DNA from: a virus | Lineage: Duplodnaviria; Caudoviricetes | Virus record (IMG/VR): IMGVR_UViG_3300031998_000005 | Direction: 5' to 3' (one strand) | Length of the DNA: 64,000 nt | Part shown: positions 904 through 53,170 of the stretch, piece after piece | Layout: each line of letters opens with the position of its first letter | Position numbering within the stretch: position 1 is the stretch's first letter | Made by a program: the position numbers and the translations under genes | Notes under the pieces: generated by a model | What the model was told of the DNA's origin: nothing | Database searches by the model: none | The model's input: the letters and a program-made list of their open reading frames with translations, nothing else

Positions 904-2310
904 TTAATCCTCTTCGGACCAAATTTTACGAGCGTATTCAGTTGCTTCCGCAGAACCAAAAGGAGAGCCATCCAAAGGACTACCACTCAACACGCCATCC
1001 ACCCATTCTGCAAATTCATCGGCAGTTCCAGAATAACCACCAAAGCCATCCAATTCTCGCATAATGGCATACTTACCAACGATTTCGGCGGCATCAGCAT
1101 CGTTAATCACAAAGTCATCGTTAGTATGCGACAAGATTTCATCACATACTGTATCTAATGCGGTTTCTGCGTTAGATACAACAAAGTGCGAAAGGCTACT
1201 CTCGTTCTTCTTGGAAACACTCTCTTTCTTCTTCTGCATAGAACAGATGTTGGACTTGCTTTCAAAACTACCCCAACCCGTTGCAGGAGTCAGTCCACTA
1301 GGAACATCAAAGCCCTTTTCCTTAACAATCTTAATAAGTTCGGGCATATCTTGGGGGCATTCTGCCATCGCCAACCGCAGGGTATTATTAACCTGGGCTT
1401 GATTACGAGGATTCCAATTTTTGAACATCGGGTGCATTTCTTGTAGTTTGGCAAGGCTTTCCTTCTTCTTCTGCATAGAACAGGTGTGCTTCTTGGCTTC
1501 CTTCTTCTTGGATTCATCCACATAAACAGCATTATACGGACCCATTTCCTTACCCGTAGCACCACGATAAATCATAGACAAGTCATCACGGAAACCAAAT
1601 CCAGGATGCTTAAAGCCACTACCGTCTTCAGCCGTTGCACGATGACGACCGTTCTTCCAAGAATAGTTCATAATGAACTTACCGTTAGAAGTCACATCCA
1701 CGGAGTCATTATCCTTCATCGTAATCTTTATCCCCATTGTGGGATATGCCTTACTGTAATAGTCCTCGTAGTCCTTCCAAAACTGCGGATTACGCCAACA
1801 AGACATCTTACCAAAATCGGGATAGTTCTGGTGAATGTCATACAACATAAACATCTTTTCGTTTTTCTTGGCTTCCTTCTTCTTGGACTCCATCAAATCC
1901 AAAGCAGTAGTCCCTTCCTCGTTCGGCTCGCCATACTTCTTCCAAATGGCTTGGGCTTCATCGTTATACCACTTGACATCAAAATTGTCATCGGTATAAA
2001 CAACCTTGCCAACCGCCATATCGGTGTCCCAAACTTCGCCCGACTTTTCATCATAGGGCATATAGAAGTCGGAGTAGTCCATCACCATCAGATTGCGATG
2101 CTTATAGCCAATCTTGGAACAAAGGGTGTAGCCGTCCTGCTGATACAGGTCTTCTTCTTCATCGTAGCCCTCGCCCCAACCCATAACGAAACACAACTCG
2201 GTCCCGTCATCAGTTGTTTCAAGAGTCTTCCACCACACCACCGAACCCGATGTAGTAAGGGTCTTGATAGCGGTGTTAAAGTCCTTTCCTGTAATCTTCT
2301 TCAGTGCCAT
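904..2310 (-). CDS. Multi-module acidic protein, putative head-cargo polyprotein
   Basis: 468 aa; modules separated by ESKKKEAKK (x2) and CSMQKKKES (x2). Confidence 0.6.
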   Translation of the reverse strand: MALKKITGKDFNTAIKTLTTSGSVVWWKTLETTDDGTELCFVMGWGEGYDEEEDLYQQDGYTLCSKIGYKHRNLMVMDYSDFYMPYDEKSGEVWDTDMAVGKVVYTDDNFDVKWYNDEAQAIWKKYGEPNEEGTTALDLMESKKKEAKKNEKMFMLYDIHQNYPDFGKMSCWRNPQFWKDYEDYYSKAYPTMGIKITMKDNDSVDVTSNGKFIMNYSWKNGRHRATAEDGSGFKHPGFGFRDDLSMIYRGATGKEMGPYNAVYVDESKKKEAKKHTCSMQKKKESLAKLQEMHPMFKNWNPRNQAQVNNTLRLAMAECPQDMPELIKIVKEKGFDVPSGLTPATGWGSFESKSNICSMQKKKESVSKKNESSLSHFVVSNAETALDTVCDEILSHTNDDFVINDADAAEIVGKYAIMRELDGFGGYSGTADEFAEWVDGVLSGSPLDGSPFGSAEATEYARKIWSEED

Positions 2311-2329
2311 AATACACCTTTCCTTTGCC

Positions 2330-3001
2330 TTATTCGGCTTCTACGTTAATTTCCTTATATCCGTCCTTGAACGAATAAGTTTCAAACTGCTTTTTGACTT
2401 CTGCCAAGAACTTATCCGCATTCGCCTGCGTCATCTGTTCTTCGGTCAATTTCATAACCACATCCAGGTCATCTTCGGGATGGCGACCATAGGTATAGTC
2501 AAAACTGCGACTAATACGCCCGTGAAGTGTATGTTCACGCCCAAAGTTGTAAAGCCAAATCTCGGCATAAGCGAAAATCTCGCAACCTTCGCTCCACCAC
2601 TGATTTTCAAAGTCGTAGAAGTCATCGGAACGGAGGTCGCATTCCACGCCTTCCTTCTCGCATTGTTCCTTGTAGGCATCTTCGCACTGCTCCTGCAAGT
2701 AATCGTAGTCCTTGTCAATCTTGTCATCTGCGTAGCCTTGACCGACAATGTTGTAGGAAGTGGTCATCCAAGTCTTTTTAACACCGCCATCGTTGTGGGA
2801 GATATATCCGCTGTAATCATCACGCTCAATATCTTCCACACCATCACCTAGTTCATACCAGGCATCACACATACCGCCACAAGACTGATTCACGTCATAG
2901 TTTTCAAGGATTTCGGTAGCCCCGTCCTTGATAAAACTATCGTAGAACTTCGCCCCTGCGGAACCGCTAGACTCGTGAACTCGGATTTTCATTTTAGACA
3001 T
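2330..3001 (-). CDS. Acidic protein with KIRVHE leader
   Basis: Starts MSKMKIRVHES; AAGGAG SD; D/E/Y-rich body. Confidence 0.7.
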   Translation of the reverse strand: MSKMKIRVHESSGSAGAKFYDSFIKDGATEILENYDVNQSCGGMCDAWYELGDGVEDIERDDYSGYISHNDGGVKKTWMTTSYNIVGQGYADDKIDKDYDYLQEQCEDAYKEQCEKEGVECDLRSDDFYDFENQWWSEGCEIFAYAEIWLYNFGREHTLHGRISRSFDYTYGRHPEDDLDVVMKLTEEQMTQANADKFLAEVKKQFETYSFKDGYKEINVEAE

Positions 3002-3045
3002 AGGACTACTCTCCTTAAATCTTTCTCAATGCTGAAATATACATT

Positions 3046-4026
3046 TTATTTTTCAGTGAACTTGGACAGGTCGGCAGAACAAATCTCGTAAGTGCCCAAG
3101 TTGTAGTGGACTTTATCGCCCGAAGGCTTGACAATGCCCAACTCGGCAAGTTTCTGCAACAGCCTGCCGTCCATACTAGAACTTGCAAAAAATTCATTAG
3201 TGTCTAACGAATACCCAGGCAAGCACACAGAAACATCCGTATAAATCTCGCCATCGTCACACTCGGCAATCAAGGCAATACCATTCGTCATAGCGTATTG
3301 TTCCAAGCGGACCGTGAGATTATTTTCTTCCCCATAGGCTTTATACGTGAAATACTCCGTCCGCTTGCCGATAGGCAACTTACTCTTGCGAGCCTCGGCT
3401 ACGCCTTCTTCAACCTTGTATTTGTTATACATTTCAATGGTCCACTGCTCGGCTTCTTCAACCGATGTGGTTTCCTTGATTTCACTACCATTAAAGTTTT
3501 CTGCAACATTGAACGTGAAAACACTTGCACTCAAACACACTTCCGCATCGGGAGAATACCAAGCGTCTACGACACCTGGAATGTCCGCAAGGTCGTTAAT
3601 GTCGGACAACGAGCCAAACAATTCCCAATCCTTGCCGTTGCTATCCGCAGCAATCTGCTGCAAGGCATCACGGATAGATTCAACATCCACAAAAGCCACA
3701 AGTGCAGGAGCGGACGGCAAAACCGCCTTCTTGTATTCCTCCTGCATAACCTTTTCAACTTCTTCCCTGCTCGGACGGTCCTTAAAGGCAACCATAAGGT
3801 AATTATCCTTTACGGTAGCCCTATCCACGTCAAGGGATATGTTTTCAATATCCCAAGCCACATCGGGGTCAAAATCCTCGGTGCCCTTGAATACCGCAAG
3901 TGCGTGTGCGGTATAACAAGACGGCAAGAAATCCCCAATTTCGTTCTTCAAGGACTGGGGAAGAAACAGGCTTTCGGCTTCCTGTTTCTTGCTCTCGTGC
4001 AAACGGATAGACAATTTCTTGGACAT
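3046..4026 (-). CDS. Leader-bearing protein with C-terminal DUF4313-like domain
   Basis: Likely start MSKKLSIRLHESKKQEAES at 4026; C-terminus (YAMTNGIALIA...EIYTDVSVCL...LGIVKPSG...GTYE) resembles DUF4313 from memory. Confidence 0.6.
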   Translation of the reverse strand: MSKKLSIRLHESKKQEAESLFLPQSLKNEIGDFLPSCYTAHALAVFKGTEDFDPDVAWDIENISLDVDRATVKDNYLMVAFKDRPSREEVEKVMQEEYKKAVLPSAPALVAFVDVESIRDALQQIAADSNGKDWELFGSLSDINDLADIPGVVDAWYSPDAEVCLSASVFTFNVAENFNGSEIKETTSVEEAEQWTIEMYNKYKVEEGVAEARKSKLPIGKRTEYFTYKAYGEENNLTVRLEQYAMTNGIALIAECDDGEIYTDVSVCLPGYSLDTNEFFASSSMDGRLLQKLAELGIVKPSGDKVHYNLGTYEICSADLSKFTEK

Positions 4027-4041
4027 TGTGATACACTCCAA

Positions 4042-4317
4042 TTACTTATATTTTTCCAACTGCTGAAAGACATAACTAAACGCATCGTTAATGCGTTCCT
4101 GCTTTCGGGCGAGATTTTCCGCAATTTCAGTAGCAGTGCCATACGCAGAATCGGCAGCACCATCTTGAATGTCTATAATACTCCCCCAAAGGGATTCTAT
4201 GGGAGAGCGACTACCGATGATAGCAGAAATGTCTTTAAGTTCATCCTGCAAATTTTCAAACTCGCCCTGCAAGGACTCGTTGCTTTCGTGCAAACGGATA
4301 GACAACTTTCTAGGCAT
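4042..4317 (-). CDS. Small helical acidic protein with SIRLHE leader
   Basis: MPRKLSIRLHESNES; directly downstream of the protease. Confidence 0.7.
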   Translation of the reverse strand: MPRKLSIRLHESNESLQGEFENLQDELKDISAIIGSRSPIESLWGSIIDIQDGAADSAYGTATEIAENLARKQERINDAFSYVFQQLEKYK

Positions 4318-4320
4318 ACC

Positions 4321-5358
4321 TTAACCTCCAAGGATGTAAGAAATCAGGCTGCCATCATTGGCTTCGTCCTTCTTGATAGCCTTGGCTTCCAAGACCTTGA
4401 ACGTCTGCGGTGCAGGCTGTTCACGCTCAATGCTTTCGTAAGTAGCACCCGCCTTGCGACGCTCCTTAACGTAATCTTCATTAAGCCCGTTCTTGTTGGC
4501 GAATTTCAACTCACGGATAGTTTCTTCGGACATCTTGATTTCTTCCTGCAAGTCTTCCACGAACTTGACGATAGACTGCTTGATGTCCTCGGTCACCTCG
4601 GTAAAGTCTTCAAACTTATACGTGTCGTTAGAGCCGTCATCGCAGTTGGACATTTCACAGCCGTTCTTGTCAAGGCTTTCAACGATGTAGGTGCTTCCGT
4701 CAAGTTCAACGGGTGCCCCAAGTTCGTTAGCCAAGGAAAGCAGGCTTTCAGCAACACGTTCGTTCACGGATTCTTCAAGGGCTTCCTTCTTCTTGGATTC
4801 CGAAATAACCTTGGGCTGTGCGTCAAGGAAACCAGGGTCTTGAACAAAGTCAAAGCGTTCAAGTTTGTAAGTCTTGGGGTCAAGAATGTCGTTGCCATCT
4901 TCGTCCTTGCCTTCGTAGTCGCCATCGGCACGGGAACTGACATACATCGTAGTTCCTGCACGGAGAATGGTGTAAAGGGTCTTACCCATATCCGTATTGT
5001 AGATGACCGATTCAGCAATGCCCGTCTTCCAATCAATGTTGCGGGTAATATGGGAGAACTTGCCCTCGGCAATATCTTCGTCAGTGATTTCGGCTTCGTG
5101 TCCGATACGACCGAACATCTGTCCGTTCTTGAGTTTGCGTTGCACATCTTCGTCTTGACCCGCAACTTCCCAAAGTTCTTCGGTGTAAAGACGATGATTA
5201 CGGCTTACCTTGCCAGGGCAGAAATGCTGACCCTTGACAATGGCGAGAATAGTGCCGCCGCTCTTGGCAACCTCGGATTGAGCGGACTCGTCCACACGGG
5301 CAATATCGTCCACGAACTCGCACTTAAACGGGATATAATCTTCTGCAATTTTCTGCAT
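4321..5358 (-). CDS. Prohead core protease, T4 gp21-like, with acidic C-terminal extension
   Basis: SRNHRLY, MFGRIGH, FSHIT, GKTLYTILRAG, VSSRADG and FDFVQDPGF match the gp21 motif order. Confidence 0.9.
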   Translation of the reverse strand: MQKIAEDYIPFKCEFVDDIARVDESAQSEVAKSGGTILAIVKGQHFCPGKVSRNHRLYTEELWEVAGQDEDVQRKLKNGQMFGRIGHEAEITDEDIAEGKFSHITRNIDWKTGIAESVIYNTDMGKTLYTILRAGTTMYVSSRADGDYEGKDEDGNDILDPKTYKLERFDFVQDPGFLDAQPKVISESKKKEALEESVNERVAESLLSLANELGAPVELDGSTYIVESLDKNGCEMSNCDDGSNDTYKFEDFTEVTEDIKQSIVKFVEDLQEEIKMSEETIRELKFANKNGLNEDYVKERRKAGATYESIEREQPAPQTFKVLEAKAIKKDEANDGSLISYILGG

Positions 5359-5407
5359 AGTAAACTAACCTTCCTTATCTACAATAGGTGTAAATGCTAC
5401 CACAAGT

Positions 5408-5704
5408 TTATTCCTTGTAATCCATAATCTGCCTAATAAGGGCATCTGCCCATTCATCCATCGGGATTTCATCAAAAGACGAACCCCATACATCGGAGTA
5501 GAACTCATTACTAGGTAAATCATTCATCACGTTGTTAATAAGTTTACCAAACGGACCGCTATTAAAAGAACCTAGACCTAGCATCAGTGTCCACCATCCC
5601 TCACGTATTTTTTCAACGGCACGGATAAGGTCTTCTTTAGATTTTGGTTTTTCAAAATCTTCGTTCTGCTTGGTTTCGTGAACCTTGATAGTCATTCTAC
5701 CCAT
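5408..5704 (-). CDS. Small protein with TIKVHE leader, paralog of 7340-7645
   Basis: MGRMTIKVHET; KEDLIRAVEKIREG...SFDEIPMDEWADAL. Confidence 0.7.
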   Translation of the reverse strand: MGRMTIKVHETKQNEDFEKPKSKEDLIRAVEKIREGWWTLMLGLGSFNSGPFGKLINNVMNDLPSNEFYSDVWGSSFDEIPMDEWADALIRQIMDYKE

Positions 5705-5708
5705 AAGG

Positions 5709-7328
5709 TTATTCTCCTAAAAATTCAATGAGATTTTCATACGGGGTTTCACCGAAATCTTCGTAGTTCAAGTAACTATCGTTAATATCATCCTTATCCC
5801 ATACAGCACGGATATTGTCTAACAACTTGCGGAGCAGTTTCTTATCATATCCTGCAAGGAACGCATTATAGAAATCAATCGCTGTAGGAATAAAGTCGGG
5901 GTCGTGTTCAAGCAACAGGTTAAGTGCTTCTTCATTATTCGTTTCGCCCACGACTCGTTTCCAATCTTCCACAAAATTCAAATCCCGTTCACTATCCCAA
6001 CTATAACGATAGGGATAACTACCATCCTTATCTGCGGGAGCATCTGTGTATTCGTCCCAACCCGCATAAAGCCACGGTTTGTCGGGTGTCGGAGCAGTTC
6101 CCGCAAAAAGTTCCTTCATAGTATCTACATCATTATTGAGAATAGCCCAACCCATAGGGTCGTGGTCATCCACGTAGAACCCATCAGCGGAACTTTCGTG
6201 TGTAACAATATCACCGCTACCATAGACAGAAGCAAGGTCAGCACCGTCGCCACGGGCTTCGGAGTGTTTAGCACGGGGCTTACGAGTAGCCCGCTTTACA
6301 TTTCTTACAAAGTCATCCCACGAATCCCCTGGGTGCTTACGAACGCCTGCTGAAATACCTTTAAGAACAATATCCAAATCGTCCAAAGTATCACAAGTCA
6401 TATGCTGATGACCATACATAATGAAAGACACTTCATAATGCGTTTGAATATCACTAGAACCACCAAGACCCGTGAAAGTTTCAGTGTAGATAATGACTTC
6501 GCCATAGGGAGAATTATAAACTATCTTCTGCTTTTTCGGGTCAATCTTGGCATCGGGGCTGTATTTCTGTGCGACTTTAAGAGCGTCCTGCAACGCCTTA
6601 CGGTCCTTGGCATACATACTGCGATAAGGTGCTTGGTCGCCTGTGCGTTCAAGTTCATCGTCATCAAAGACGGATTCGGTAGGCTTTTCGTTCTTACGTC
6701 CGACCACGCCTGTCGGTGCGACCCCAAGCGATGATGCAGATGCACCATCTTCGTTCTTAAAACCCTTGGACTTCTTCCAAACCGCATATTCGGACGGGTC
6801 ATCAATCTTTGCAATAACCCCGTGGAAACCATCAGTTACCATATTGAACCAATCCTTCACAATCAGTTCAATCGCATCGTAAGCCATATCAAACGGCTCG
6901 TCCTGCAAGCCTTGATTTACAACCGCCACAATGGGTTCTGCACCAACTACGTGAATATCAAGAAGATGGGAGTCCGTGCCCTTACTATAAACGGAGTGGC
7001 AAGCGTCTTCATCCTTACGATAATCCGACTTGACATAGAAATACTTACCGCTCGGATTGTCAAACCCACGGATAAACAATCCCTTAATCACAGCGTTCAA
7101 GTCATCCCATTGGTTAGACAAATCCACATCGTCCAAGACAGATTCCGAAATCTTCGTAGCAGAACGGATAGGAGCGGTCACACTTGCAAGGTCGCCAAAG
7201 TCGCCATAAGTGCGGGGGAGCAAGGATTCATAACGAGCCTGGGCTTCGTCCTTGTCCTTAAAGGCTTCAACTTTCTTCTTGCCGAAGAAATCCGTATAGG
7301 AAATAGTCCAATTAAGTCCTTTTGTCAT
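5709..7328 (-). CDS. Large acidic multi-module hypothetical protein
   Basis: 539 aa in the cargo block; internal KISES, PTES, HSEA and VTHES segments. Confidence 0.6.
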   Translation of the reverse strand: MTKGLNWTISYTDFFGKKKVEAFKDKDEAQARYESLLPRTYGDFGDLASVTAPIRSATKISESVLDDVDLSNQWDDLNAVIKGLFIRGFDNPSGKYFYVKSDYRKDEDACHSVYSKGTDSHLLDIHVVGAEPIVAVVNQGLQDEPFDMAYDAIELIVKDWFNMVTDGFHGVIAKIDDPSEYAVWKKSKGFKNEDGASASSLGVAPTGVVGRKNEKPTESVFDDDELERTGDQAPYRSMYAKDRKALQDALKVAQKYSPDAKIDPKKQKIVYNSPYGEVIIYTETFTGLGGSSDIQTHYEVSFIMYGHQHMTCDTLDDLDIVLKGISAGVRKHPGDSWDDFVRNVKRATRKPRAKHSEARGDGADLASVYGSGDIVTHESSADGFYVDDHDPMGWAILNNDVDTMKELFAGTAPTPDKPWLYAGWDEYTDAPADKDGSYPYRYSWDSERDLNFVEDWKRVVGETNNEEALNLLLEHDPDFIPTAIDFYNAFLAGYDKKLLRKLLDNIRAVWDKDDINDSYLNYEDFGETPYENLIEFLGE

Positions 7329-7339
7329 ACAAGCGACCC

Positions 7340-7645
7340 CTAGCGGTTATGAACCTTGATTTTAAGATGACTTTCAGTCTTGCCATTACCCAGGCTTTCA
7401 AGATACTCAATCATAGCATCGCAAAATTCTGCAATCCGCAGTTCATCATAGGAACGTGGAGCGAACGAATCGCCATACAACGCATCTATAGCAGGGACAT
7501 CTTCGCAGGCTTGGTTGAACCAACCACCATACTCGTTCTCACGCCCAGGAATTACAACGGCATCGGAGTTTATAAGGGTTTCGTTGAACCCATCACGCAT
7601 TTTCTTAAAGCCGTCTATAAGTTCTTGTTTCGTAATGTTAGACAT
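7340..7645 (-). CDS. Small protein ending in a KIKVH motif, paralog of 5408-5704
   Basis: KQELIDGFKKMRDG...SYDELRIAEFCDAM; ends ESHLKIKVHNR; GGAG SD. Confidence 0.7.
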   Translation of the reverse strand: MSNITKQELIDGFKKMRDGFNETLINSDAVVIPGRENEYGGWFNQACEDVPAIDALYGDSFAPRSYDELRIAEFCDAMIEYLESLGNGKTESHLKIKVHNR

Positions 7646-7756
7646 CGGTTGTCTCCGTAAGTAATAAGTTCATCAGTAAAAATAATAACAAAACCAACCA
7701 AGCGGTATGCACCCTACATCAAAATAAGGCATATCCTACGTGATATAACAAGATAC

Positions 7757-8533
7757 CTACGGCTTTTCCACCTCAACATAAGCGTCTGCGGGAACGATGA
7801 CCCTTGTTCCATCGGTCGCCACGTGTTCTTTCCATTCGGGAGTGCCGTTGAAATCCATAGACGCAAGCGGAATCCCGTTAGGATTATACAAGTCCACGAC
7901 AATGCTACGGAGCGGTGCCATCTTCCAATCTGCGAACTCGGACACAAACTGCAAGAACACCTTGACGTTCCAAGAGTAGGAAAACAGGTTGCCCTGTCGG
8001 AAAGACACGAGTTCTTCTGTTCCCAAGTCCTGTATGACAGTCAAGTTCAAGCCTGCCGTATTATACCCGCCCTCGGACGGGGTGCTTCGGTCATCGTAAG
8101 CAAATCGTAAATTTATCGGGACATTATGGATATTTTGATACTCGGCTGCGAACGCCTCGGCAAAATCTTCAATCAGTTCTGCCTTGTTAGACACCAAGAC
8201 ACAGCCCATACCGAAAGACGCAGAAACTGTCTTTTTGAACTTCAACTTGTCATCGGGGGTCTTTCCATCGGCTATACGGATAGAGCGTCTAACAAGATTC
8301 TCCAAAGAATCCCTAGTCCAAAACAGGTAGGAATACGGGTCTTCTCGGACCGTTTCCCTGTCCGTCTGCGACTTGCGTTCCATTTTCTTATTGGCTATGT
8401 CTTGGTCAAGCAGGCGTTGGGGACCCTCGGCATCCGCACCATAAGCGACTTTCATAGACTTATCAAAGCCCTGCCTAGTAAAGAAATTCCGCATTTGAGC
8501 GAAATAAGCCTTGACAGCAATAGACTGCATCAT
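7757..8533 (-). CDS. Putative tail completion/structural protein
   Basis: 258 aa next to spike gene; assignment from context only. Confidence 0.35.
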   Translation of the reverse strand: MMQSIAVKAYFAQMRNFFTRQGFDKSMKVAYGADAEGPQRLLDQDIANKKMERKSQTDRETVREDPYSYLFWTRDSLENLVRRSIRIADGKTPDDKLKFKKTVSASFGMGCVLVSNKAELIEDFAEAFAAEYQNIHNVPINLRFAYDDRSTPSEGGYNTAGLNLTVIQDLGTEELVSFRQGNLFSYSWNVKVFLQFVSEFADWKMAPLRSIVVDLYNPNGIPLASMDFNGTPEWKEHVATDGTRVIVPADAYVEVEKP

Positions 8534-8548
8534 AAATCAAACACCCCA

Positions 8549-9079
8549 CTAGAACAGGACTTTCTGCTGTGCCGGGGTGTGAAGACCCGTAAGCGGACAA
8601 GCCGTCATACAATTCAAGCCCATACTACTACCATCGCCAATCGTTATCATATCCGCTGCGATAGAGAGAATACCCTTGGTTTCCACATTAGTTCCCGCCA
8701 AGGAATGCTCCACACGGAAACCATCATCGCCACCCTGGAACTCAAACTGCGTTCCGTCCTTGCGACCCTTAAAGATATTCTTGCCCAATCGGATATAAAA
8801 TTCATCTGTGGTGTTAGTCCCGTTCAATTCCTGGGCTAGACCCAAGACATAGGCTTCGCACAGGTTTCGGACTTCCACGATTACTTCGTCATCCACTTCG
8901 TAGGAATAAGAAAGGGGTAGCAGGGGTTTTGCCCAAAAGTCAAGGTGGACTTCTTCCTTGGCGTTCATCGTGCATTGGACTTTATAGAAATCCCCTATCT
9001 CCAATATCTTGCAACGGAGAGTATAAGTTCTAGGCGTGAGAGCCTTGCGGAGTGCAGCAGTGCCAAGGTCAAAATTCAT
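8549..9079 (-). CDS. Putative baseplate central spike protein
   Basis: OB-like N-terminus, beta-rich C-terminus ending CMTACPLTGLH (His/Cys apex like phage spikes). Confidence 0.55.
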   Translation of the reverse strand: MNFDLGTAALRKALTPRTYTLRCKILEIGDFYKVQCTMNAKEEVHLDFWAKPLLPLSYSYEVDDEVIVEVRNLCEAYVLGLAQELNGTNTTDEFYIRLGKNIFKGRKDGTQFEFQGGDDGFRVEHSLAGTNVETKGILSIAADMITIGDGSSMGLNCMTACPLTGLHTPAQQKVLF

Positions 9080-9121
9080 ACCCTAAATATAAGTAAATTT
9101 TGTTATATTAGTAAATACCCT

Positions 9122-9772: not shown

Positions 9773-9774
9773 CA

Positions 9775-14317: not shown

Positions 14318-14319
14318 AA

Positions 14320-44376: not shown

Positions 44377-44406
44377 AGGTGGTTGCCTCTCGGTTTTGAC
44401 ACCTAT

Positions 44407-44435: not shown

Positions 44436-44468
44436 TAGTATTTCTTAAAATAATTTCTTACGAAATTC

Positions 44469-44891
44469 TTATTTTACGATTTCAGCGTCCTGCACATCAA
44501 CAGGGTTTCCCGTGCTACGCTTGAAGATTTCGGACTTGATACGCTCGGCATCGTCCTCGGAAAACACCGTCGTGTCCACCTTTTCATCGGACTTGTCCAC
44601 TTCCACATTGGACGTGTCGGTGGCGTAGCCGTTGATTGCCCGCAGGATGTCCAGGCGTAGTCTTACGGATTCGTTGGTCTGCCTAGACATATCCATCAGT
44701 TCACGCAGGGTCGCTTGGTCAAGGTTCGTGCTGTTGGCGATGGCGTTGTCAATAGCGTCCATTCGGTGCAGAAGGGCAGCCATACTCTCCATTGAGTTCT
44801 TGGAGATATTTACCCCTAGAAGGTTCATTTTAGCCTGTAATTCGGCTAGTTCCTTTTTCGGAACGGCTACCTGTGTATTTTCTTCGCTCAT
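44469..44891 (-). CDS. Helical protein, possible terminase small subunit
   Basis: 140 aa, helical, C-terminal VDVQDAEIV; weak evidence. Confidence 0.35.
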   Translation of the reverse strand: MSEENTQVAVPKKELAELQAKMNLLGVNISKNSMESMAALLHRMDAIDNAIANSTNLDQATLRELMDMSRQTNESVRLRLDILRAINGYATDTSNVEVDKSDEKVDTTVFSEDDAERIKSEIFKRSTGNPVDVQDAEIVK

Positions 44892-44931
44892 AGTTCCTAA
44901 TCTAACAAATTATCGGGTGTGTGTCAATAGG

Positions 44932-44958
44932 AAAACACCCGCCCTTGCGGACGGGTGC
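44932..44958 (-). terminator. Intrinsic terminator
   Basis: CACCCG...CGGGTG stem plus T-run, ends the cargo block. Confidence 0.7.
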
Positions 44959-44979
44959 TTACTATGCAATGGAAATCTG

Positions 44980-46755
44980 TTAGGACATCTTGTAGACATC
45001 TACTTCGTAGCACGGTCCACCATATTCGTCAAAGTCGTTCCTGCTACGGAAATCGGCTTCTTCACTGCGGTCATCCAAGTAATACTGCTTGCCGTATTCT
45101 TCTTCAAACTTGGCAAGGATTTCCTGTTCGTGTTCGTCAAGGTCTTCGCCATATTCATTTCCGAACGTGTGGGCTTCCCACAGCCATTTCGGAACGATAA
45201 TGGTGTCAATGAGTTCAAGATGAACTTCGGACTGCTTGGATTCCGTTTTCTTGCGGGATTCGGTCAAGTTTTCCTGCCCTGCGATGAACTTGGCGGTTTC
45301 GGCTGCGGACAGGTCGCCATCGGTGTAGTTCTGCTGAATGACATCGGCATACTTGTCGGCAAGACGTTTGGCACCGTTCGTTCCACAAGCCCAAATGACA
45401 TCAAGTTCGGAAATGATGTCGGACGTGTAGTTCTTCAAGTCGTGGGCTTCGGACTTTTTAGGGTCATCGCCAACTTTCTTCAAAGCGTCAAGAACTTCAC
45501 CAACGGACTTAAATCTTACAGGGTGTTCGTCCTGGATGTCGCCTCTATACATACTCCCACCGAAAACTTCAATAGATTCAAGATATTCGCCTGTGCGGTC
45601 TTCATTAAGCGAAAAATAATACTTAATGCCATCTTTGGTAGCAGTGAAACGTGTCCGATACGGATAAATCATACCATTACGGACATTGGACGAAGGCTCA
45701 AACCCAAGGGCTTTAAGACCATCAATAAGAGTCCAATAGTTATCATAGGCGGTTTCATCGTCCTCGTTCGCTTCGGACTTCTTGGATTCCTTTGGCTTGT
45801 AGGGTCCGTCAACGTATTTGGTTCCAATGAAATCGTAGAAAAGTGCGTCCTGTATGGGCTGCTTAACGGTTTCTTCTCCGTAGTTCCAACCCAACAGGTC
45901 TATGATACCCTCGGTTACGTTGTAGCAGGCGTTCCACTGATAGGCTTCGTCCTCATCGTCATAGCAGTCGCCGTGTTCATTATCGGGGTCAACGATATGG
46001 ACGGTAGTCACGAACTCGCCGTCGTCAAATTCAAACCACCCATTGAATAAATCCAAGAGGGCTTCCATATTTTCATTGACAAATTCTTCGCCAAAGTTTG
46101 ACTTTTCATTTTCGGGCACGTGTTCTACGATACTCTTGAATGCTTTGCGGATAGCGTCTTCTTCGGTGGTTGCACTTTCGGATTTCTTGCTTTCGCTCTT
46201 GCTATACTGCTTCATTCTCTGCATTTGGTCCTCTGCTTGTTTCTTTGTCGGGAACGACGCAAGAACTCGGTTATCTTCGTGGCTACGGATTACCCACGGA
46301 GCGTCTTCGCCCTTGCTGTTCTTATGTCCTTTTTCATAACCTAACTTTTCGTCAGTGTCCTTGGACTCGTTTTCGTGTTCTGCCGTCCATCGGGCATCAC
46401 AATCGCTACAAAAGCCCCCGTGTGCGTCAAGTTCATAACTAGGGGTGACTCGTCCACATCTGTGGCAATAGTAGTAATCTTCGGAGTCATCCCCATCCAT
46501 ATAGAACTCGGATTTCTTTTCAATACCAATATCCTTCAGCGGGATTTCAGTTTCGGTAGTGTCCTTGATTCCGTATAACGTGGCTGTGGTCGCTCCGTGT
46601 CGGAGAGCCATTTCCAATGTTCCACGGGCATCTACGATACCACTGGTATTCTTGAAATAGGGTTCACCATCAATGATGTAGTGAACCTTAAAGTAGTCAT
46701 ACTGCGAAGGGTCAAACCTACTTTCGTGAACTTTGATAGTAAAAGGCATATCCAT
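44980..46755 (-). CDS. Leader-bearing polyprotein of about 7 modules
   Basis: MDMPFTIKVHES; linkers EKKSE, ENESK, ESKKSES, ESKKSEA, KKSEA, ESRKKTESKQSE. Confidence 0.7.
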   Translation of the reverse strand: MDMPFTIKVHESRFDPSQYDYFKVHYIIDGEPYFKNTSGIVDARGTLEMALRHGATTATLYGIKDTTETEIPLKDIGIEKKSEFYMDGDDSEDYYYCHRCGRVTPSYELDAHGGFCSDCDARWTAEHENESKDTDEKLGYEKGHKNSKGEDAPWVIRSHEDNRVLASFPTKKQAEDQMQRMKQYSKSESKKSESATTEEDAIRKAFKSIVEHVPENEKSNFGEEFVNENMEALLDLFNGWFEFDDGEFVTTVHIVDPDNEHGDCYDDEDEAYQWNACYNVTEGIIDLLGWNYGEETVKQPIQDALFYDFIGTKYVDGPYKPKESKKSEANEDDETAYDNYWTLIDGLKALGFEPSSNVRNGMIYPYRTRFTATKDGIKYYFSLNEDRTGEYLESIEVFGGSMYRGDIQDEHPVRFKSVGEVLDALKKVGDDPKKSEAHDLKNYTSDIISELDVIWACGTNGAKRLADKYADVIQQNYTDGDLSAAETAKFIAGQENLTESRKKTESKQSEVHLELIDTIIVPKWLWEAHTFGNEYGEDLDEHEQEILAKFEEEYGKQYYLDDRSEEADFRSRNDFDEYGGPCYEVDVYKMS

Positions 46756-46764
46756 TCTCCGTTG

Positions 46765-47781
46765 TTAAAATCCGCAATCGCCCAAGGCACAGCCTACATC
46801 GTCAAGCGACCCTGCGAGTATAATTTCATCTTCGGCATATTTGGGAACTTCCATATACACGTGCCATTTCTTTGCCCAGGGTTCAATGTCCGCAGGCTTG
46901 CAACGACTCCACTTGCTATTGATAGTAGCGTAGTGGAACGCAGTTATATCAAAGAAACTATCGGATAGTGTCTTGTCTTCGGAACTATCAAGGAAATCTA
47001 CCAATTCATCTATCGTGTTCACGTAGATGTTCGTGTAGTCCTTGTCGGGGATAACGATGACATTTTCATTGTTCTTGGCTGCGTTTACCGCCCATTCAGT
47101 AGCGTCCGCAGGAACGTCAAAGGTGAAGCACAGGTTACGATGGATAGGCATTAAATCTTCGTTTCGCATAGTCTTTTTACCTTTTGCAACTTCTCTTGCG
47201 AGTTCCATAGATGAAGCGGACGGTCCTACGCCCATACCCCACCCATTGCAGTCCGACCACTTTTGCAGTTCGCTAACGTCATCGCAGTAAATGTCAAATT
47301 CATCGGACGGCTTGCGTTCGGGGCCATAGACAGGGTAATACCCGTGTATGACGCACTTGGCATTTCCCGCATCGGGGTAAAGGTCGGGGTCTGCTTCCCC
47401 GAAGCCCATCACACGGAAAGTAAACGCACCCCTGCGGAGGCAACGGATAGTCGCACGAACAGGAACGCACACTCCGTTCGGGAGTTCCAAGGTGCTACCA
47501 TATCGCAGGCAGTCAAATTCCACGTCGGGGTGGACTACCTGTAAGGATTCATACCTACCCGCATTTACGGCATTGAACCTAGACAACTTGTGTATGTGGC
47601 GTTTGCCCGCAAAGGATTTAATCCACCCGTTGAGTTCCTTGGTTCTTTTCCTGCGGGTCAGCGGATTATTCCAGGTGTGCTTCGCACGAGCGGACTGAAT
47701 GTAGCCCGTGTGCGAAGAATGGTCATCCTTGAACCTGTCAAGGAGCGACTTTTTATGCAGGAAATATCCGTTGTTAGGCAT
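46765..47781 (-). CDS. Hypothetical protein with basic N-terminus and acidic remainder
   Basis: 338 aa; basic part ends at RYES. Confidence 0.6.
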   Translation of the reverse strand: MPNNGYFLHKKSLLDRFKDDHSSHTGYIQSARAKHTWNNPLTRRKRTKELNGWIKSFAGKRHIHKLSRFNAVNAGRYESLQVVHPDVEFDCLRYGSTLELPNGVCVPVRATIRCLRRGAFTFRVMGFGEADPDLYPDAGNAKCVIHGYYPVYGPERKPSDEFDIYCDDVSELQKWSDCNGWGMGVGPSASSMELAREVAKGKKTMRNEDLMPIHRNLCFTFDVPADATEWAVNAAKNNENVIVIPDKDYTNIYVNTIDELVDFLDSSEDKTLSDSFFDITAFHYATINSKWSRCKPADIEPWAKKWHVYMEVPKYAEDEIILAGSLDDVGCALGDCGF

Positions 47782-47790
47782 TGTGAACCT

Positions 47791-48369
47791 TTATGTTTTG
47801 TTGGACTTGATTTCCTCGTCCACGATAGAATCAACTATTCGTAGGATATGGGATTTCGCCTGTTCAAAGTTTTCAGTCTTTTCTATCTCGTCACGGATTT
47901 TATTACGCAACTTGATACGGGACGGACCACGGGTGTCGTTAAGATTATATTGCTTGGCGAGGCTCTTGGCTGCTATACCCATCTGTGTAATGTCATCGGC
48001 AAGAGCACGATAAGACACGTGTTCCTTAACGAAATCTTCAATGTCGTTATAGGAATTAAACGCTTCCTTTTTCTTGGATTCATCAGCGTCATCGTTTTCA
48101 ATGGAAACAAGTTCGCCATCGTCATCCCACTCCAAGCCGTCTTCTTCAAGAGCGTCATCGGTCGGGATAAGTTCGTCCTGCTTCATCCACCCGTAGGCTT
48201 TTTCAACCATATCTTCGGACAAACCACGGGCGAGAAATTCACCGATGGTCGCCCAGTCAATGTAGCCCTGTTCAACAAGGCAATACAGGCGGTTCATATA
48301 CGGACGAGCGGAGTCTTCGTTCTTCTTGAGAGATTCAATCTTCTTCTGCATAGAGCACTGATGTTTCAT
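47791..48369 (-). CDS. Protein with CSMQKK leader and internal ESKKKEA linker
   Basis: MKHQCSMQKKIESLKKNED; GGAGG SD. Confidence 0.7.
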   Translation of the reverse strand: MKHQCSMQKKIESLKKNEDSARPYMNRLYCLVEQGYIDWATIGEFLARGLSEDMVEKAYGWMKQDELIPTDDALEEDGLEWDDDGELVSIENDDADESKKKEAFNSYNDIEDFVKEHVSYRALADDITQMGIAAKSLAKQYNLNDTRGPSRIKLRNKIRDEIEKTENFEQAKSHILRIVDSIVDEEIKSNKT

Positions 48370-48381
48370 AGTGTGTCCTCC

Positions 48382-48852
48382 TTAATCTGCTTGGAGAGCA
48401 TTGAAAGCGTTTTGTGCAAGGTCTATGGCTCGTTGAATTGCCTTCATACAACTATTCACATCCTTGGAGTAGGTGTGAGTAAGCGGGATGTAGTTCACAG
48501 GACGCTTGTAGTCGGCTGTTCTTGCGTCTACACTGATGGTCTGTGTTTTTTCGGCATATTCATTGAGTTCATAGTTTACAACGATACAACTACCGATTGC
48601 CAATTCAAATTTCTTAATGTAGATACGACGGTTCGGAGTGTCGTAGGTGTAAGGCATATTCAAGCGGACAAGGGCTTCAATGAAAACCTTGTCGCTCGGA
48701 CCTAATGTCTTGAAATGCGTTTCAATTTCTTCAATGTGACTGCTCACTTTGAGATTCGCTGCATCCCTTTCAAGGTCATCGGCAGTGTAGAGGGCTTCGG
48801 ACTTTTTCTTCTTAAGCGATTCAATCTTTTTCTGCATAGAGCATTTAGCCAT
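48382..48852 (-). CDS. Protein with CSMQKK leader
   Basis: MAKCSMQKKIESLKKKKSEA; GGAGG SD. Confidence 0.7.
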   Translation of the reverse strand: MAKCSMQKKIESLKKKKSEALYTADDLERDAANLKVSSHIEEIETHFKTLGPSDKVFIEALVRLNMPYTYDTPNRRIYIKKFELAIGSCIVVNYELNEYAEKTQTISVDARTADYKRPVNYIPLTHTYSKDVNSCMKAIQRAIDLAQNAFNALQAD

Positions 48853-48864
48853 AACAAGCCCTCC

Positions 48865-49851
48865 TTAAATGTCGGTCATACCCTTCTTGGCGATTTCAAT
48901 GCCTGTCTTTCCCTGTTCGCCAGGAACTTCCGTCTGTGGCATCACATCACGGGTCGGGGCATTCTTGATAGGCTTGTTGGACTTGTTCATAAGACCCGAA
49001 TTTGCAAGAATGGCATTCTTGATGTCGTTCTTGTCAATTTCGCTGTTGTAGTATTCACGGTAAGCATTCACCATACCTTCCTTGATATTCTCGTCAAGGT
49101 AGTCTTTGAGTTTCGGGGCACCGCTTTCAGCCATCCAATCAAAGATGTTGTAACCCGACTCAACTGTGCTGGAAGGCATTTCGCCATCGTTGGCAACGGC
49201 AATAGCACCTTGGAAATCTCGGAGCATATCTGCGGGGTCTTGGGCGGTGTTGCCTGCCGAGTTCTTGAACACAAGGCAAGAAATCTTGCAGTTCGGGTTG
49301 AGCAGGAAAATCTGCGACCATCTGTGATGCCCGTCTACAATGTAATATGTGCCGTTGTAGTCATATACGACCACGGGTGCCTTGATGGTGACAGGACCAT
49401 TTTCAAGAATCTGCTTGATTTGGGTCGGGTTCTGTCCACTGCACTGATAACCCAAGGATTTCTTCACGTCAATTTCGTTCTGCGTGGGGTGCAGGTCCTT
49501 TGCAGAAATATCCATAACTTCGGTGTTCATCTTGGTAGCCTTTTCGCCATCACCGAAACCCATTTCAAGTAAGTCAAGTTGTTCATCGGTAAGTCCGTCA
49601 AGAGCATCTACAAGATTACCCATATCGGACTTGGACTTCAAGTCCTTAATTTCCTTGTCAAAATCGGCATCGTCATCTTCGTAGATACCTTCAAGGGCTT
49701 CGTTGTAGCCTTTCTTGTAGGTAAGGAACGCAGCACGGGACGAGAACGACTCTTGGGTCTTCATCGGGGCATACTTTCTGCCGTCCTTGTTCCCCATAGA
49801 GTAGTAGGATTCTTTCTTCTTGTTTTCTTTGATTTTGATTGTCAAACCCAT
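48865..49851 (-). CDS. ParB/Srx-like domain protein with leader variant
   Basis: Likely start MGLTIKIKENKKKES at 49851; LHPTQNEI, IVDGHHRW. Confidence 0.8.
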   Translation of the reverse strand: MGLTIKIKENKKKESYYSMGNKDGRKYAPMKTQESFSSRAAFLTYKKGYNEALEGIYEDDDADFDKEIKDLKSKSDMGNLVDALDGLTDEQLDLLEMGFGDGEKATKMNTEVMDISAKDLHPTQNEIDVKKSLGYQCSGQNPTQIKQILENGPVTIKAPVVVYDYNGTYYIVDGHHRWSQIFLLNPNCKISCLVFKNSAGNTAQDPADMLRDFQGAIAVANDGEMPSSTVESGYNIFDWMAESGAPKLKDYLDENIKEGMVNAYREYYNSEIDKNDIKNAILANSGLMNKSNKPIKNAPTRDVMPQTEVPGEQGKTGIEIAKKGMTDI

Positions 49852-49869
49852 AGTGGTAATCCTCACTGG

Positions 49870-50175
49870 TTAATAAACACTCGTAATGTTTTCAAGGGCG
49901 GTTTCAACATCGTTAGCCATCTTGACCGAAGCACCTTCGGGGAGAGATTGCATAACAAAGTCTTTCCAATCTTCTACGTTAGTGATACCCCTAAACTGAC
50001 CTTCTTCAAGATAATCGCTAGTTTCCTGCATAGCGATAGACAATTCTTCCAAGTTAAGTCCAAGGTCGGAGGGAACTCCCAATCCTTTTTCCTTGCGGTA
50101 TCTATAGTCGTTTAAGATATAGTTAAGGGTCTTGATGTTGGATTCCAACATAAATTTGGCTTCTTGAAAATCCAT
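49870..50175 (-). CDS. Small acidic protein
   Basis: MDFQEAKFMLES; AAGGA SD. Confidence 0.65.
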   Translation of the reverse strand: MDFQEAKFMLESNIKTLNYILNDYRYRKEKGLGVPSDLGLNLEELSIAMQETSDYLEEGQFRGITNVEDWKDFVMQSLPEGASVKMANDVETALENITSVY

Positions 50176-50235
50176 ACTAATCGTTCCTTTACAAAGGTGG
50201 ATTGGTTATACATATCCTAAAATAACAATTTGACC

Positions 50236-50820
50236 CTAGACGTGCAACACCAAGTCCAGGTAAATGAGCGATTCTTCGTTCTCTTTCTTGGCGTTCGGGT
50301 TTCTCAAAGTCCTAATGTTCTTCACGAAATAGGACAAATCTTCATCCCCGTAGTGGACGAGCAACTTGGAATGTAATACAATATCGCCTGGGCAGTAGTT
50401 CCTGTGTCCATTGGTATTCTTTAAGGTATAAGCCGTATTTTCTTCGTCAAGGAACATTTCTGTTCCACGGATTACGGGCTGTTCCTGCGGGTCAAGGAAC
50501 GCTATGCGGGCGATAAAGTCGGGTTCTTCGTTATACCTGTATTCGTGGTCTTTGTCGTTGTAAACCGACCCTGTGCGGTCTTCTTCGTTGTAATCGCCCA
50601 TAAAGGGCATACCGCTGTAAATGGATTGGTCGCCACGGTCCTCAATCGGGTAGTCGGGCGTTCCTTCGGAAGCCACAGGCAGATACACTTCGGCATTAAG
50701 TCCGATGATAGAAATAGCGTGTTTCAAGGCGACATACACGTGTAGGTCGGCTATGTTGGTAATCACGTTTTGGGCGTGTTTACCTTTCAAGTATTCCATA
50801 TCATCTAAAGATTGGGGCAT
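50236..50820 (-). CDS. Putative head-completion/structural protein
   Basis: 194 aa; HAISIIGLNAEVYLP weakly gp14-like. Confidence 0.35.
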   Translation of the reverse strand: MPQSLDDMEYLKGKHAQNVITNIADLHVYVALKHAISIIGLNAEVYLPVASEGTPDYPIEDRGDQSIYSGMPFMGDYNEEDRTGSVYNDKDHEYRYNEEPDFIARIAFLDPQEQPVIRGTEMFLDEENTAYTLKNTNGHRNYCPGDIVLHSKLLVHYGDEDLSYFVKNIRTLRNPNAKKENEESLIYLDLVLHV

Positions 50821-51044
50821 AATTCCTCTTTGCGGATAATCTTACCTTTCCAATTCGGTCCCATCTTGTGAGCCTGTTCGGTGTCCGAACAATAACTGCA
50901 TACTGCTCGTCCACCGATGAACCTGTATGTCTTACGCTCGTGGCAAATGCAACAGGTTTCCTTTGTCCCCGCAGTATGTCTTTTGCGGTGGAGCGGGGGT
51001 AGTCCGTCAATCGTTATCGGCTTTGGGTATTCTTCGTATATCAA
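50805..51044 (-). CDS. Small Zn-finger protein
   Basis: CCIC...CSYC. Confidence 0.55.
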   Translation of the reverse strand: MIYEEYPKPITIDGLPPLHRKRHTAGTKETCCICHERKTYRFIGGRAVCSYCSDTEQAHKMGPNWKGKIIRKEELCPNL

Positions 51045-51047
51045 GAA

Positions 51048-51365
51048 TTAGCCCTCGCAATACCGATTGAAGATTTCTTCTAACTTGTGGAACACGTCCA
51101 AATCGCAGTGCCAATCAAAGGTAGAGTCGGCATCCCACGTGCGAATTTTGAAACTGCCCCCGTTGTAAGCCAACTCATAGGAACACACAAATTCTCCGAC
51201 ACCCTTTACGTTGATGACAAGTTGTTGCACCCCATATTTGGTCGGTTCGCTGTATGCCTGCATCTTGAAATCACTGCCACCAAGAGCCTGCTTGAACTCG
51301 GACATCATAGCGTTCAAGTCCACATCGCCCTTCTTTTCGTGAACACGGATTTTCATATTAGTCAT
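51048..51365 (-). CDS. Protein with KIRVHE leader
   Basis: MTNMKIRVHEKK; GGAG SD. Confidence 0.7.
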   Translation of the reverse strand: MTNMKIRVHEKKGDVDLNAMMSEFKQALGGSDFKMQAYSEPTKYGVQQLVINVKGVGEFVCSYELAYNGGSFKIRTWDADSTFDWHCDLDVFHKLEEIFNRYCEG

Positions 51366-51394
51366 AGTAAATCTCCAAGTGGTGTCCTATCCGA

Positions 51395-51730
51395 TTAGTA
51401 GGTAATGTGGATAAGGTTTTGGAGTTTCTTCAACAGGTAATCCCTGTATTCGGGAGTATGCCCCGTTTCTTCATTCAGCCAACCATCCTGCTTGGTCTTG
51501 AAGAAATAGGTGTCCCATTCATCCGTGCCTGCGTGGAAACTGATGGGCGTGACCTTGCTTTCTTCCAACTTGAAGTAATAGGTGCAGTCATCGCTTTTCC
51601 CATCTTCATCAAGCATATAGTATGCGAAAATTCCTGGATAGGCAGGGTTCATTTCAACGATACCATCCTTTCCGTAGAAAAGGGTGGTTTCGCTTACAGA
51701 CTCGTGGAGTTTGATTTTCATTTTAGACAT
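51395..51730 (-). CDS. Protein with KIKLHE leader
   Basis: MSKMKIKLHES at 51730; AGGAG SD. Confidence 0.7.
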   Translation of the reverse strand: MSKMKIKLHESVSETTLFYGKDGIVEMNPAYPGIFAYYMLDEDGKSDDCTYYFKLEESKVTPISFHAGTDEWDTYFFKTKQDGWLNEETGHTPEYRDYLLKKLQNLIHITY

Positions 51731-51740
51731 AGTGTTGCTC

Positions 51741-52397
51741 CTAGTAAATTTCAACTGTCATATCGTAGCGGTCAAACGGGGCTTCCTTTGTTCCCGCAGC
51801 GAAACACTTGATTCTGCCGAACAATTCATAGCCTTCGGGGGTGCTGGCTGAAAAGTCATAGGTCTTGGTATTTCCGTTATATCCCCCCGTGCGGTTGTCT
51901 GCCCACATTTCAAATTTGACTTTCGGGAAAGCGTCTTTGAGAGCATCACGGATTTTCCAAACAGCACTCCAATCGGTATCGTGGAAGAAACCCTTGGAAA
52001 GCGGATTCACAATACGTTGCATTTCTGTGCGATACTCGTTTCGGGTGTGCTTGTCCGCATCAGCATCCCACTTTTCGTGAACCTTGATTTTCAATTTACT
52101 TTCCATTTTCTTCTCTCCGATGGCATACAGGCTGTAAATCCTAGACCCTGCGGTGTAGAACTTTTTGCCCCATACACGAACACCCGAACCAACGTAGGTA
52201 GTGCTGTCATTCAAGACCACTACCCCCTGTCCTGTTTGGTCATCGGTGTCCAAAGCACGGATAGGCTTGTTGAACGTATATGCGTGTTGCCAAGCGGTCA
52301 TAGGACCGAACGGCTTTTTAGACCACAGCAGTTCGCAGGGGTTCTTCGGGTTTACCCGATAGGTAATGCCGTATTTTGGAACGTATAGTGTCTGCAT
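51741..52397 (-). CDS. Two-module protein with internal KIKVHE motif
   Basis: Internal MESKLKIKVHEK at about residue 98. Confidence 0.65.
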   Translation of the reverse strand: MQTLYVPKYGITYRVNPKNPCELLWSKKPFGPMTAWQHAYTFNKPIRALDTDDQTGQGVVVLNDSTTYVGSGVRVWGKKFYTAGSRIYSLYAIGEKKMESKLKIKVHEKWDADADKHTRNEYRTEMQRIVNPLSKGFFHDTDWSAVWKIRDALKDAFPKVKFEMWADNRTGGYNGNTKTYDFSASTPEGYELFGRIKCFAAGTKEAPFDRYDMTVEIY

Positions 52398-52399
52398 AA

Positions 52400-53170
52400 C
52401 TAATGGGTGTCAATCCACTTGCGGATGTCATCAAAGGTTTCAAGCCCTACGTTTTGAGTGCCGATGGTCACGTCATAGTAGTTGGGGTCAAACAACTTTT
52501 CAGTAGTCGCCCATTCTTCCTGCGTAGGCATATCTACACCCGCAGTGTAATCCTGGGTGTCCTTTTGATACGGAATACCCAAGCAGATTTCAGTGAACAT
52601 ATTGTCCTTGCTAATCTTGCCATTTTTAATAGATGACCTAATGGCTTCTTGCCATTCGTCAATTTGGCTGTCCACCGAAACATTACTTTTCTTTCCACCG
52701 ATTTCCATAAGATTGCCGTCTGCGTCATAGATTTCGGGGTAAGCCTTGCCACCGTCGTAGTAGCAGACGTAATCGGGGTTGCTATCCACGATACTTTCAA
52801 CCTTGTATGCGAGTTCGGTCAAGAGGTCAAGGATTTCGTCATCGCTCGCAGATTCGGATTTCTTGCTTTCAAACTCGTAGTTGAACAACAGGTCTTCCAC
52901 TTCTTTCGGGGCGACAATTTTTTCAATCTTGTTGTTCGGAAACCACTCACGGACAATCTTTTCAATCTTTTCGGGGGTCATCTTGTTAATTTCATCGCCC
53001 TCGCATTCCACGTAGATGGTGTCGCCAAGGACGGCTGTATTAACAAACGGTCCCCAACCATCACGGAGATAGTATTCTTCATCGGAAGCGGTGTCTGCGT
53101 CATCGCACTTGATAGCCCATACTTGCATAGAGCCGTGGGATTCGTGAACCTTGATTTTCATTTTGGACAT
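52400..53170 (-). CDS. Two-module protein with KIKVHE leader
   Basis: MSKMKIKVHES; internal FESKKSES. Confidence 0.7.
   Translation of the reverse strand: MSKMKIKVHESHGSMQVWAIKCDDADTASDEEYYLRDGWGPFVNTAVLGDTIYVECEGDEINKMTPEKIEKIVREWFPNNKIEKIVAPKEVEDLLFNYEFESKKSESASDDEILDLLTELAYKVESIVDSNPDYVCYYDGGKAYPEIYDADGNLMEIGGKKSNVSVDSQIDEWQEAIRSSIKNGKISKDNMFTEICLGIPYQKDTQDYTAGVDMPTQEEWATTEKLFDPNYYDVTIGTQNVGLETFDDIRKWIDTH

Follow-up and report, generated by a model that had tools for sequence, protein, structure and literature searches.

We analyzed a 64,000-nucleotide window (the whole stretch of DNA considered here) from a tailed phage (Caudoviricetes; IMG/VR record IMGVR_UViG_3300031998_000005), part of a 215,686-bp phage record (G000) that is 99% complete according to CheckV, and found that genes in it are strings of independent modules that have been joined, swapped and lost at short linker peptides of the type ESKK[KSQ]E[AS]. 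About 30 genes of the phage bear an N-terminal tag, an internal linker (ES, one to three K or R, any residue, E) or both; most lie in or beside the head operon, their tags are T4-like and ~10 residues long, and 30 of the 31 genes of the set (cargo and protease) are on the structural-gene strand. We propose that these genes probably make up a T4-style capsid-cargo system that has been extended to cleavable polyproteins.

The linker motifs quoted in a preliminary description of the window were all found in place, with ESKKKEAKK of the 904-2310 gene at amino acids (aa) 141 and 266, and its view that single genes encode strings of small modules joined at linkers is borne out by homology breakpoints, module swaps, strain crossovers and a stop-codon allele. 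The multi-module genes and their joints are as follows.

904-2310, minus strand: a 468-aa chain of four modules (~aa 1-140, 152-265, 292-349 and 372-468) with no N-terminal tag; its database matches fall in four stretches.
1858-1890, minus strand: linker ESKKKE-A-KKNE, aa 141-151 of the 468-aa chain (motif and breakpoints).
1459-1515, minus strand: linker ESKKKE followed by an internal CSMQKKKE tag, aa 266-284 of the 468-aa chain (motif and breakpoints).
1201-1245, minus strand: internal CSMQKKKE tag plus KKNE, aa 356-370 of the 468-aa chain; L008 and L018 have the adjoining module fused behind others, and in P0123 it is by itself.
3046-4026, minus strand: a 326-aa tagged protein whose N-terminal tag LSIRLHE has ESKKQEAES at aa 11 (ESKKQE, 3979-3996) as its tail (motif placement).
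5709-7328, minus strand: a 539-aa chain with degenerate joints at ~aa 215 and 355-365, its modules exchanged in relatives.
44980-46749, minus strand (likely start; the listed frame runs to 46755): a 589-aa tagged chain (FTIKVHE-S) of at least six modules (linkers and relatives).
46177-46194, minus strand: linker ESKKSE (ESKKSES), aa 186-191 of the 589-aa chain; a strain's matching segment ends at 46181.
45772-45789, minus strand: linker ESKKSE (ESKKSEA), aa 321-326 of the 589-aa chain, the crossover point in close strains.
45448-45462, minus strand: short linker PKKSE (PKKSEA), aa 430-434 of the 589-aa chain (relatives and breakpoints).
45226-45261, minus strand: double linker ESRKKTE-SKQSE (ESRKKTESKQSE), aa 497-508 of the 589-aa chain (motif and relatives).
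47791-48369, minus strand: a 192-aa two-module protein with a CSMQKKIE tag (48334-48357) and linker ESKKKE(A) at aa 97 (48064-48081), both located by motif.
51741-52397, minus strand: a 218-aa fusion with an internal tag LKIKVHE (52074-52094), whose tagged half is a separate gene in L055.
52400-53170, minus strand: a 256-aa tagged two-module protein with linker ESKKSE(S) at aa 101 (52853-52870), where a stop-codon allele falls.

The 589-aa chain has an additional EKKSE at aa 77 that the preliminary description did not list, and module 1 of 47791-48369 is found inside other chains (P0093 and P0099). The claim that the linker also separates modules in 3046-4026 did not hold, ESKKQE there following the tag directly; the actual joint lies at ~aa 204-210, relatives end at ~205 aa, and the C-terminal part, which is DUF4313-like (E 1.1e-5, under the cut-off), is missing from most relatives. 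The system extends past the window to two chains downstream of the capsid gene, of 1265 aa (L001:3268-7065; G000 156268-160065) and 489 aa (L001:8233-9702; G000 161233-162702).

A single targeting tag had also been supposed, but there are two N-terminal types, KIKVHE-S (as in MSKMKIKVHE-S) and CSMQKK[KI]E-S, both ending in Glu-Ser; the 904-2310 gene has no tag at its start and two CSMQ tags inside, and no tag could be recognised in the chains of 1265 and 489 aa. Tags end in a linker (LHE-SKKQE, VRE-SKKNE), and whole tags also occur inside chains, which probably arose by the fusion of tagged genes, with the tail of the tag retained as the joint. Segments between linkers have a median length of 109 aa, and modules are ~80-150 aa long.

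The chance level of these motifs was taken from 200 rounds of within-protein shuffling across the 330 called genes. The genome has 12 copies of ESKK[KSQ]E[AS], against a shuffle mean of 0.005 and a maximum of 1; the broader pattern ES[KR]K.{1,2}E occurs 18 times (0.39 in shuffles), SM[QN]KK nine times (0.04) and the N-terminal tag pattern of the MSKMKIKVHE-S type 16 times (0.51). The shuffles rule out low complexity as the source of the motifs. In an all-against-all BLAST within the genome, the bodies of the tagged proteins are mutually unrelated; the only matches were the tags and one zinc ribbon, ruling out that the modules are paralogues of one another.

Linkers coincide with the ends of homology. 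We located 113 homology breakpoints among 106 cargo-type proteins, taken from the G000 genome and from contigs related to it, and 42 of them are no more than 5 residues away from a linker (random mean 8.7, maximum 20 in 2000 draws). This count is not a probability, as the source genomes are related and each joint enters through both of its partners, so that the breakpoints are non-independent. The matches of the 468-aa chain among 1.84 billion proteins split into four linker-bounded stretches, and a search for stand-alone homologues, suggested in the preliminary description, found short single-module homologues of its modules 1, 3 and 4, many of them untagged, although some may be cut by contig ends; module 1 has more than 100 homologues. 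In relatives, the module at aa 321-434 of the 589-aa chain occurs in the order tag, module, KKSE, variable middle, KKSE, and the final module of the 1265-aa chain; P0077-P0088 and L014 have module A and module Z in common, with several unrelated middles between the two KKSE joints and none in P0082. Shortened joints retain KKSE only.

The same exchange is visible between close strains. Contigs from two studies depart from the window sequence at 45771 and 45772, the last bases of the aa 321-326 linker, a strain from a third study has 45429-45808 replaced, and 47742-48107 is replaced in a strain. In three samples, an allele of 52400-53170 has TAG in place of the first Glu codon of the linker, with the remaining linker DNA kept and module 2 lost, and the same locus carries the tagged half of 51741-52397 as a separate gene.

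Linker DNA is itself nearly constant. The linker Ser codon is TCC at 16 of 16 and 14 of 18 positions, compared with 53% and 42% in matching contexts elsewhere (p = 8e-5 and 0.005), a uniformity consistent with common descent or crossover homology. Uniformity beyond what codon context predicts also favors an alternative in which the linkers are uncut spacers and relics of fused tags that help in core binding or serve only as DNA homology for exchange, while the proteins work whole, as many polyvalent proteins do; that tags end in a linker and lie whole inside chains also fits this alternative. Linker Ser is, however, encoded by both TCC and AGC, which indicates selection on the peptide and rules out a purely DNA-level repeat as the sole cause. 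Two further observations, from the head protease and from a second phage lineage, bear on the same question.

The protease lies among the cargo genes: from it, the gene order is four cargo genes, a scaffold-like gene and the major capsid gene (phrog_138 match, E 2.7e-8).

4321-5358, minus strand: T4 gp21-type (S77) prohead protease of 345 aa, with a catalytic domain to ~aa 187 and a separate C-terminal domain (profile, fold and invariant columns).
4783-4800, minus strand: ESKKKE within the protease, aa 187-192, the predicted self-cleavage region (E187 invariance, gp21 alignment and a dip in model confidence).
1-563, minus strand: scaffold-like gene with ARNE-A repeats that precedes the major capsid gene and runs off the window; its scaffold role is suggested by position.

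The assignment to the gp21 type, also made in the preliminary description, is supported by phrog_207 (E 1.6e-21), by a profile match to T4 gp21 (5JBL; E 0.0015), by the fit of the predicted structure to 5JBL (Foldseek E 2.6e-6, root-mean-square deviation 2.3) and by a predicted triad of H87, S142 and D170 that is invariant in 61 homologues, its Ser and Asp aligning with those of T4 gp21; the match to PF03420 (E 2.5e-4, 21 bits) is under the 27-bit Pfam cut-off. A linker had been noted behind the FDFVQDPGF motif, and ISESKKKEALEES indeed occupies aa 185-197, seven residues past it. E187, the first Glu of ESKKKE, is invariant in the 61 homologues, at identities down to 30%, and aligns with ITE-S of T4 gp21, and the structural model has a predicted local distance difference test (pLDDT) score of 65-66 at aa 181-200, between two confident domains. 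E187 and E192 lie 17 and 22 residues after D170. In phage SPN3US, the protease gp245 cuts itself at E203, 25 residues past the catalytic Asp (PMC5694885); for T4 gp21, C-terminal self-cleavage has been suggested only (PMC5694885). From the invariant E187 and the T4, phiKZ and SPN3US enzymes, we infer that the protease would cut after Glu in a short motif. A complex prediction of the protease with a linker peptide scored 0.01, which is no evidence either way. An invariant Glu in the protease weighs against linkers that are never cut.

The strongest evidence tying the linker to the protease lineage comes from a switch of joint code. Chains that start with module 1 of 904-2310 are also present in a rumen phage lineage of 143 kb, whose S77 protease (L052:334-1206 and L049:13097-13948; records G005 and G006) is above the Pfam cut-off and keeps the triad, while the post-catalytic Glu is absent. 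Chain joints in this lineage read K/R-x-[IV]-[KT]-S-[SAG], and [IV][KT]S[SAG] occurs three times in the protease and once in the capsid protein (aa 73-74), where the G000 capsid protein has VNE-NSS. The two codes are mutually exclusive: the head and cargo genes of G000 have 33 Glu-type and no Ser-type linkers, whereas four loci of the 143-kb lineage, which are related to one another, have no Glu-type and 18, 14, 12 and 14 Ser-type linkers, against 0.2-0.4 expected. The joint thus changes with the genome and not with the module, as fits a site read by a genome-encoded enzyme rather than a passive spacer. A spacer would be expected to stay with its module, but module 1 has a different joint where the protease differs, and we therefore regard the uncut-spacer alternative as unlikely.

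The 143-kb lineage protease is possibly a gp21-family enzyme that cuts after Ser. Its Ser-type joints are reminiscent of the V-x-A/S cleavage rule of herpes assemblin. In P0182, P0194, P0211 and P0126, module 1 of 904-2310 is part of chains that have other joints again (L/V-x-ESKKITE; ESRK[SN]E), and these extra joint types suggest further lineages with their own codes. We can offer a wider generalization only tentatively: that large T4-type phages may have a general polyprotein cargo system, its joint written in the code of the resident head protease and rewritten on module transfer, that includes a gp21-family lineage cutting after Ser ([IV]-[KT]-S, then S/A/G). The DNA of the joint would be the crossover site, and shuffling would yield a repertoire of dozens of small injected proteins whose families are as yet undescribed.

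For G000, by analogy with T4, phiKZ and SPN3US, we infer loading, cutting, ejection and a function in the host. Cargo chains would be made late and would bind the prohead core through their tag or their basic linkers; at head maturation, the protease would cut each linker behind its first Glu, its second or both, and the resulting 80-150-aa pieces would be retained in the head and ejected along with the DNA, like T4 IPI-III and Alt. The near-constant linker DNA would supply crossover points for module exchange. Late timing would be in keeping with the promoter-like sites: five tagged clusters are preceded by -10-only sites, as head and tail genes are, and not by perfect TTGACA promoters, and structural genes have only the -10 part of the promoter-like site TATTGACA...TTGTTATATT. 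About two dozen near-identical sites of this complete form stand before small genes genome-wide, for example at ~44415 and ~54235 of the window.

Several observations weigh against this proposal, beyond the non-independence of the breakpoints given above. One linker gene outside the window (G000 5288-6238; L003:1288-2238), which encodes a two-module protein with an internal CSMQKKKE-SLSKKSE joint and lies among early genes, is behind a perfect TTGACA early-type promoter, the sole exception to the pattern above. Some chains are untagged. In the protease, the KKKE or KKSE that follows ES is kept in closer homologues only, so that the protease's own site and the cargo joint do not obey the same rule throughout. 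A hydrophobic or aromatic residue two positions before the first Glu (P3) is present in only 6 of 15 internal linkers (background 29%), and the T4 L/I-x-E rule as it stands therefore fails to explain the linkers; the nine that depart from it also suit linkers that go uncut. Taken with the short KKSE joints and the scaffold ARNE-A, this mismatch is better accommodated by a looser rule (P1 Glu, small P1' residue) than by that of T4. A single-sequence fold of the 589-aa chain (mean pLDDT 39) was too poor to reveal disordered linkers. Finally, the characterised substrates of the T4, phiKZ and SPN3US proteases are end-trimmed or degraded, never split into several kept products (PMC9026906, PMC10052503). 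In more distant relatives of G000 (47-62% protease identity), tags and ES are kept, with fewer linkers near the head genes.

The early-type promoter and the untagged chains would fit a reading in which the chains are cut in the cytoplasm by the phage protease or a host protease and act in the same infection without being packaged. Most of the genes, however, are in or beside the head operon and carry T4-like tags, and T4 gp21 becomes active after prohead assembly (PMC9958956), making cytoplasmic cutting very improbable. It is also quite unlikely, if slightly less so, that the chains are packaged and cut but are core or filler like T4 gp22, gp67 and gp68, with the pieces cleared or inert and without a role in the host. 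Cutting reduces the core proteins of T4 to many fragments (PMC9026906), and the G000 modules are acidic (net 0.062 compared with 0.022) with no enzyme family above cut-off; yet modules turn over between close strains in which scaffold, protease and capsid are 80-99% identical, and the free-standing, untagged module homologues elsewhere suggest functions of their own.

The cleavable cargo system that we propose resembles T4 IPI, IPII, IPIII and Alt (PMC9026906, PMC9958956) in its gp21-type protease, in its unrelated small proteins with a common ~10-residue N-terminal peptide that ends in hydrophobic-x-Glu, and in cargo sets that vary between relatives. T4, however, has a handful of end-trimmed proteins, whereas G000 has ~30 genes with two dissimilar tag types and chains that contain 2 to ~12 modules and carry sites and tags in their interior. 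The G000 system thus appears to work like that of T4 without being a member of it by homology, and it differs from that of T4 in having internal sites in multi-module chains. With phiKZ gp175 and SPN3US gp245 (PMC5694885, PMC10052503) it would share Glu in a short motif, a small residue after the cut and self-cleavage just past the catalytic domain, all of these being predictions on the G000 side; the phiKZ and SPN3US cuts remove N-terminal propeptides, with no substrate reported to give several kept products, and the G000 phage is not phiKZ-like. Polyvalent proteins are mosaics of 2-15 unrelated domains with a predicted delivery alongside DNA, for which their authors drew the polyprotein analogy (Iyer et al. 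2017, PMC5512222); G000 chains likewise hold unrelated, mobile domains in one chain, but they lack the hallmark domains (MPTase, ART, kinases and LPD families) and an embedded peptidase at E <=0.01 (LPD29 reached E 0.073 over 17 residues only), and the repeated linker is not described in PMC5512222. A literature search, with most subscription journals outside it, found no paper on cargo polyproteins jointed for a head protease, only that on polyvalent proteins being relevant.

An RNA-virus polyprotein is encoded in one reading frame, and a viral protease releases several products from it by cutting at a fixed motif. The parallel is one of analogy, since the G000 modules are non-essential and rapidly swapped and the protease is one of capsid maturation. 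If our proposal is true, a head protease is not just an end-trimmer: within the capsid, it separates strung-together small proteins, each of them portal-sized, as T4 IPI is small enough for the 30-Å portal channel (PMC9026906). In that case, genomes could be searched by linker for the phage proteins that are injected, among which new counter-defence factors are likely, and the specificity of a head protease could be read from a genome.

The modules had been taken for effectors; in Pfam, PHROG and PADLOC scans of the chains, no module matched a known enzyme or anti-defence family at the level of its curated cut-off, and we do not believe the weak PADLOC matches (E 0.0008-0.007). The best labels (ParB-like domain, DUF4313, zinc ribbons and winged helix) are all under curated cut-offs or of unknown function, and the scanned cargo proteins had no PHROG or Pfam match to the T4 IPI-III or Alt families. 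Searches of two window chains against cultured phages by tblastn gave no match, the 1265-aa chain matched cultured phages by its first module only (a hypothetical protein of Pseudomonas phage KPP25), and an ESM Atlas search gave no usable match. A counter-defence role for the modules would be only an analogy with T4 IPI.

The remaining members of the set in the window are mostly tagged genes of a single module.

2330-3001, minus strand: tagged (MKIRVHE-S), single module; relatives L005, L007 and L008 have this module attached after an ESKK[NS]E linker.
4042-4317, minus strand: tagged (LSIRLHE-S), single module.
5408-5704, minus strand: tagged (MTIKVHE-T), single module.
7340-7645, minus strand: a 101-aa gene with a C-terminal relic tag, TES-HLKIKVHN, seen in its sequence.
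48382-48852, minus strand: CSMQKKIE-tagged single-module gene, absent from three strains.
48865-49851, minus strand: tagged protein (LTIKIKE-NKKKE-S) with a ParB-like domain (phrog_1033, E 4.3e-7; PF08857 under cut-off).
51048-51730, minus strand: two tagged single-module genes (MKIRVHE-K at 51365 and MKIKLHE-S at 51730).
53191-53870, minus strand: two tagged single-module genes (MKITLHE-S and MKIKVHE-S) at the head of a cluster, preceded by a -10-only promoter-like site.

The samples that best match the G000 record, which is of an uncultured phage, are bovine gut metagenomes, and the nearest cultured heads are those of RP13, IME392 and Kleczkowskaviridae (protease identity 38-42%). Fib_succ_major domains (PF09603; L038:9528-9995, L055:3230-3570 and G000 210558-210977), which are tagged in two relatives, give a weak hint of a Fibrobacter or Bacteroidota host. 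A reverse-transcriptase-like gene downstream of the tail-fibre genes of one relative (L038:17292-18647; PF00078, weak match) is possibly part of a diversity-generating retroelement. At least five paralogues that start MELNKIYN or MDLNRIYN (G000 48370, 55552, 56323, 71185 and 89461, plus window 63758-64000) look by appearance like DNA methyltransferases, and four adjacent genes at G000 73826-77584 have starts that, judged by eye only, resemble an NAD salvage set (synthetase, nicotinamidase, phosphoribosyltransferase and adenylyltransferase). Long open frames on the plus strand of the window (3298-5427 and 44632-46050), antisense to real genes, are most likely codon-bias shadows.

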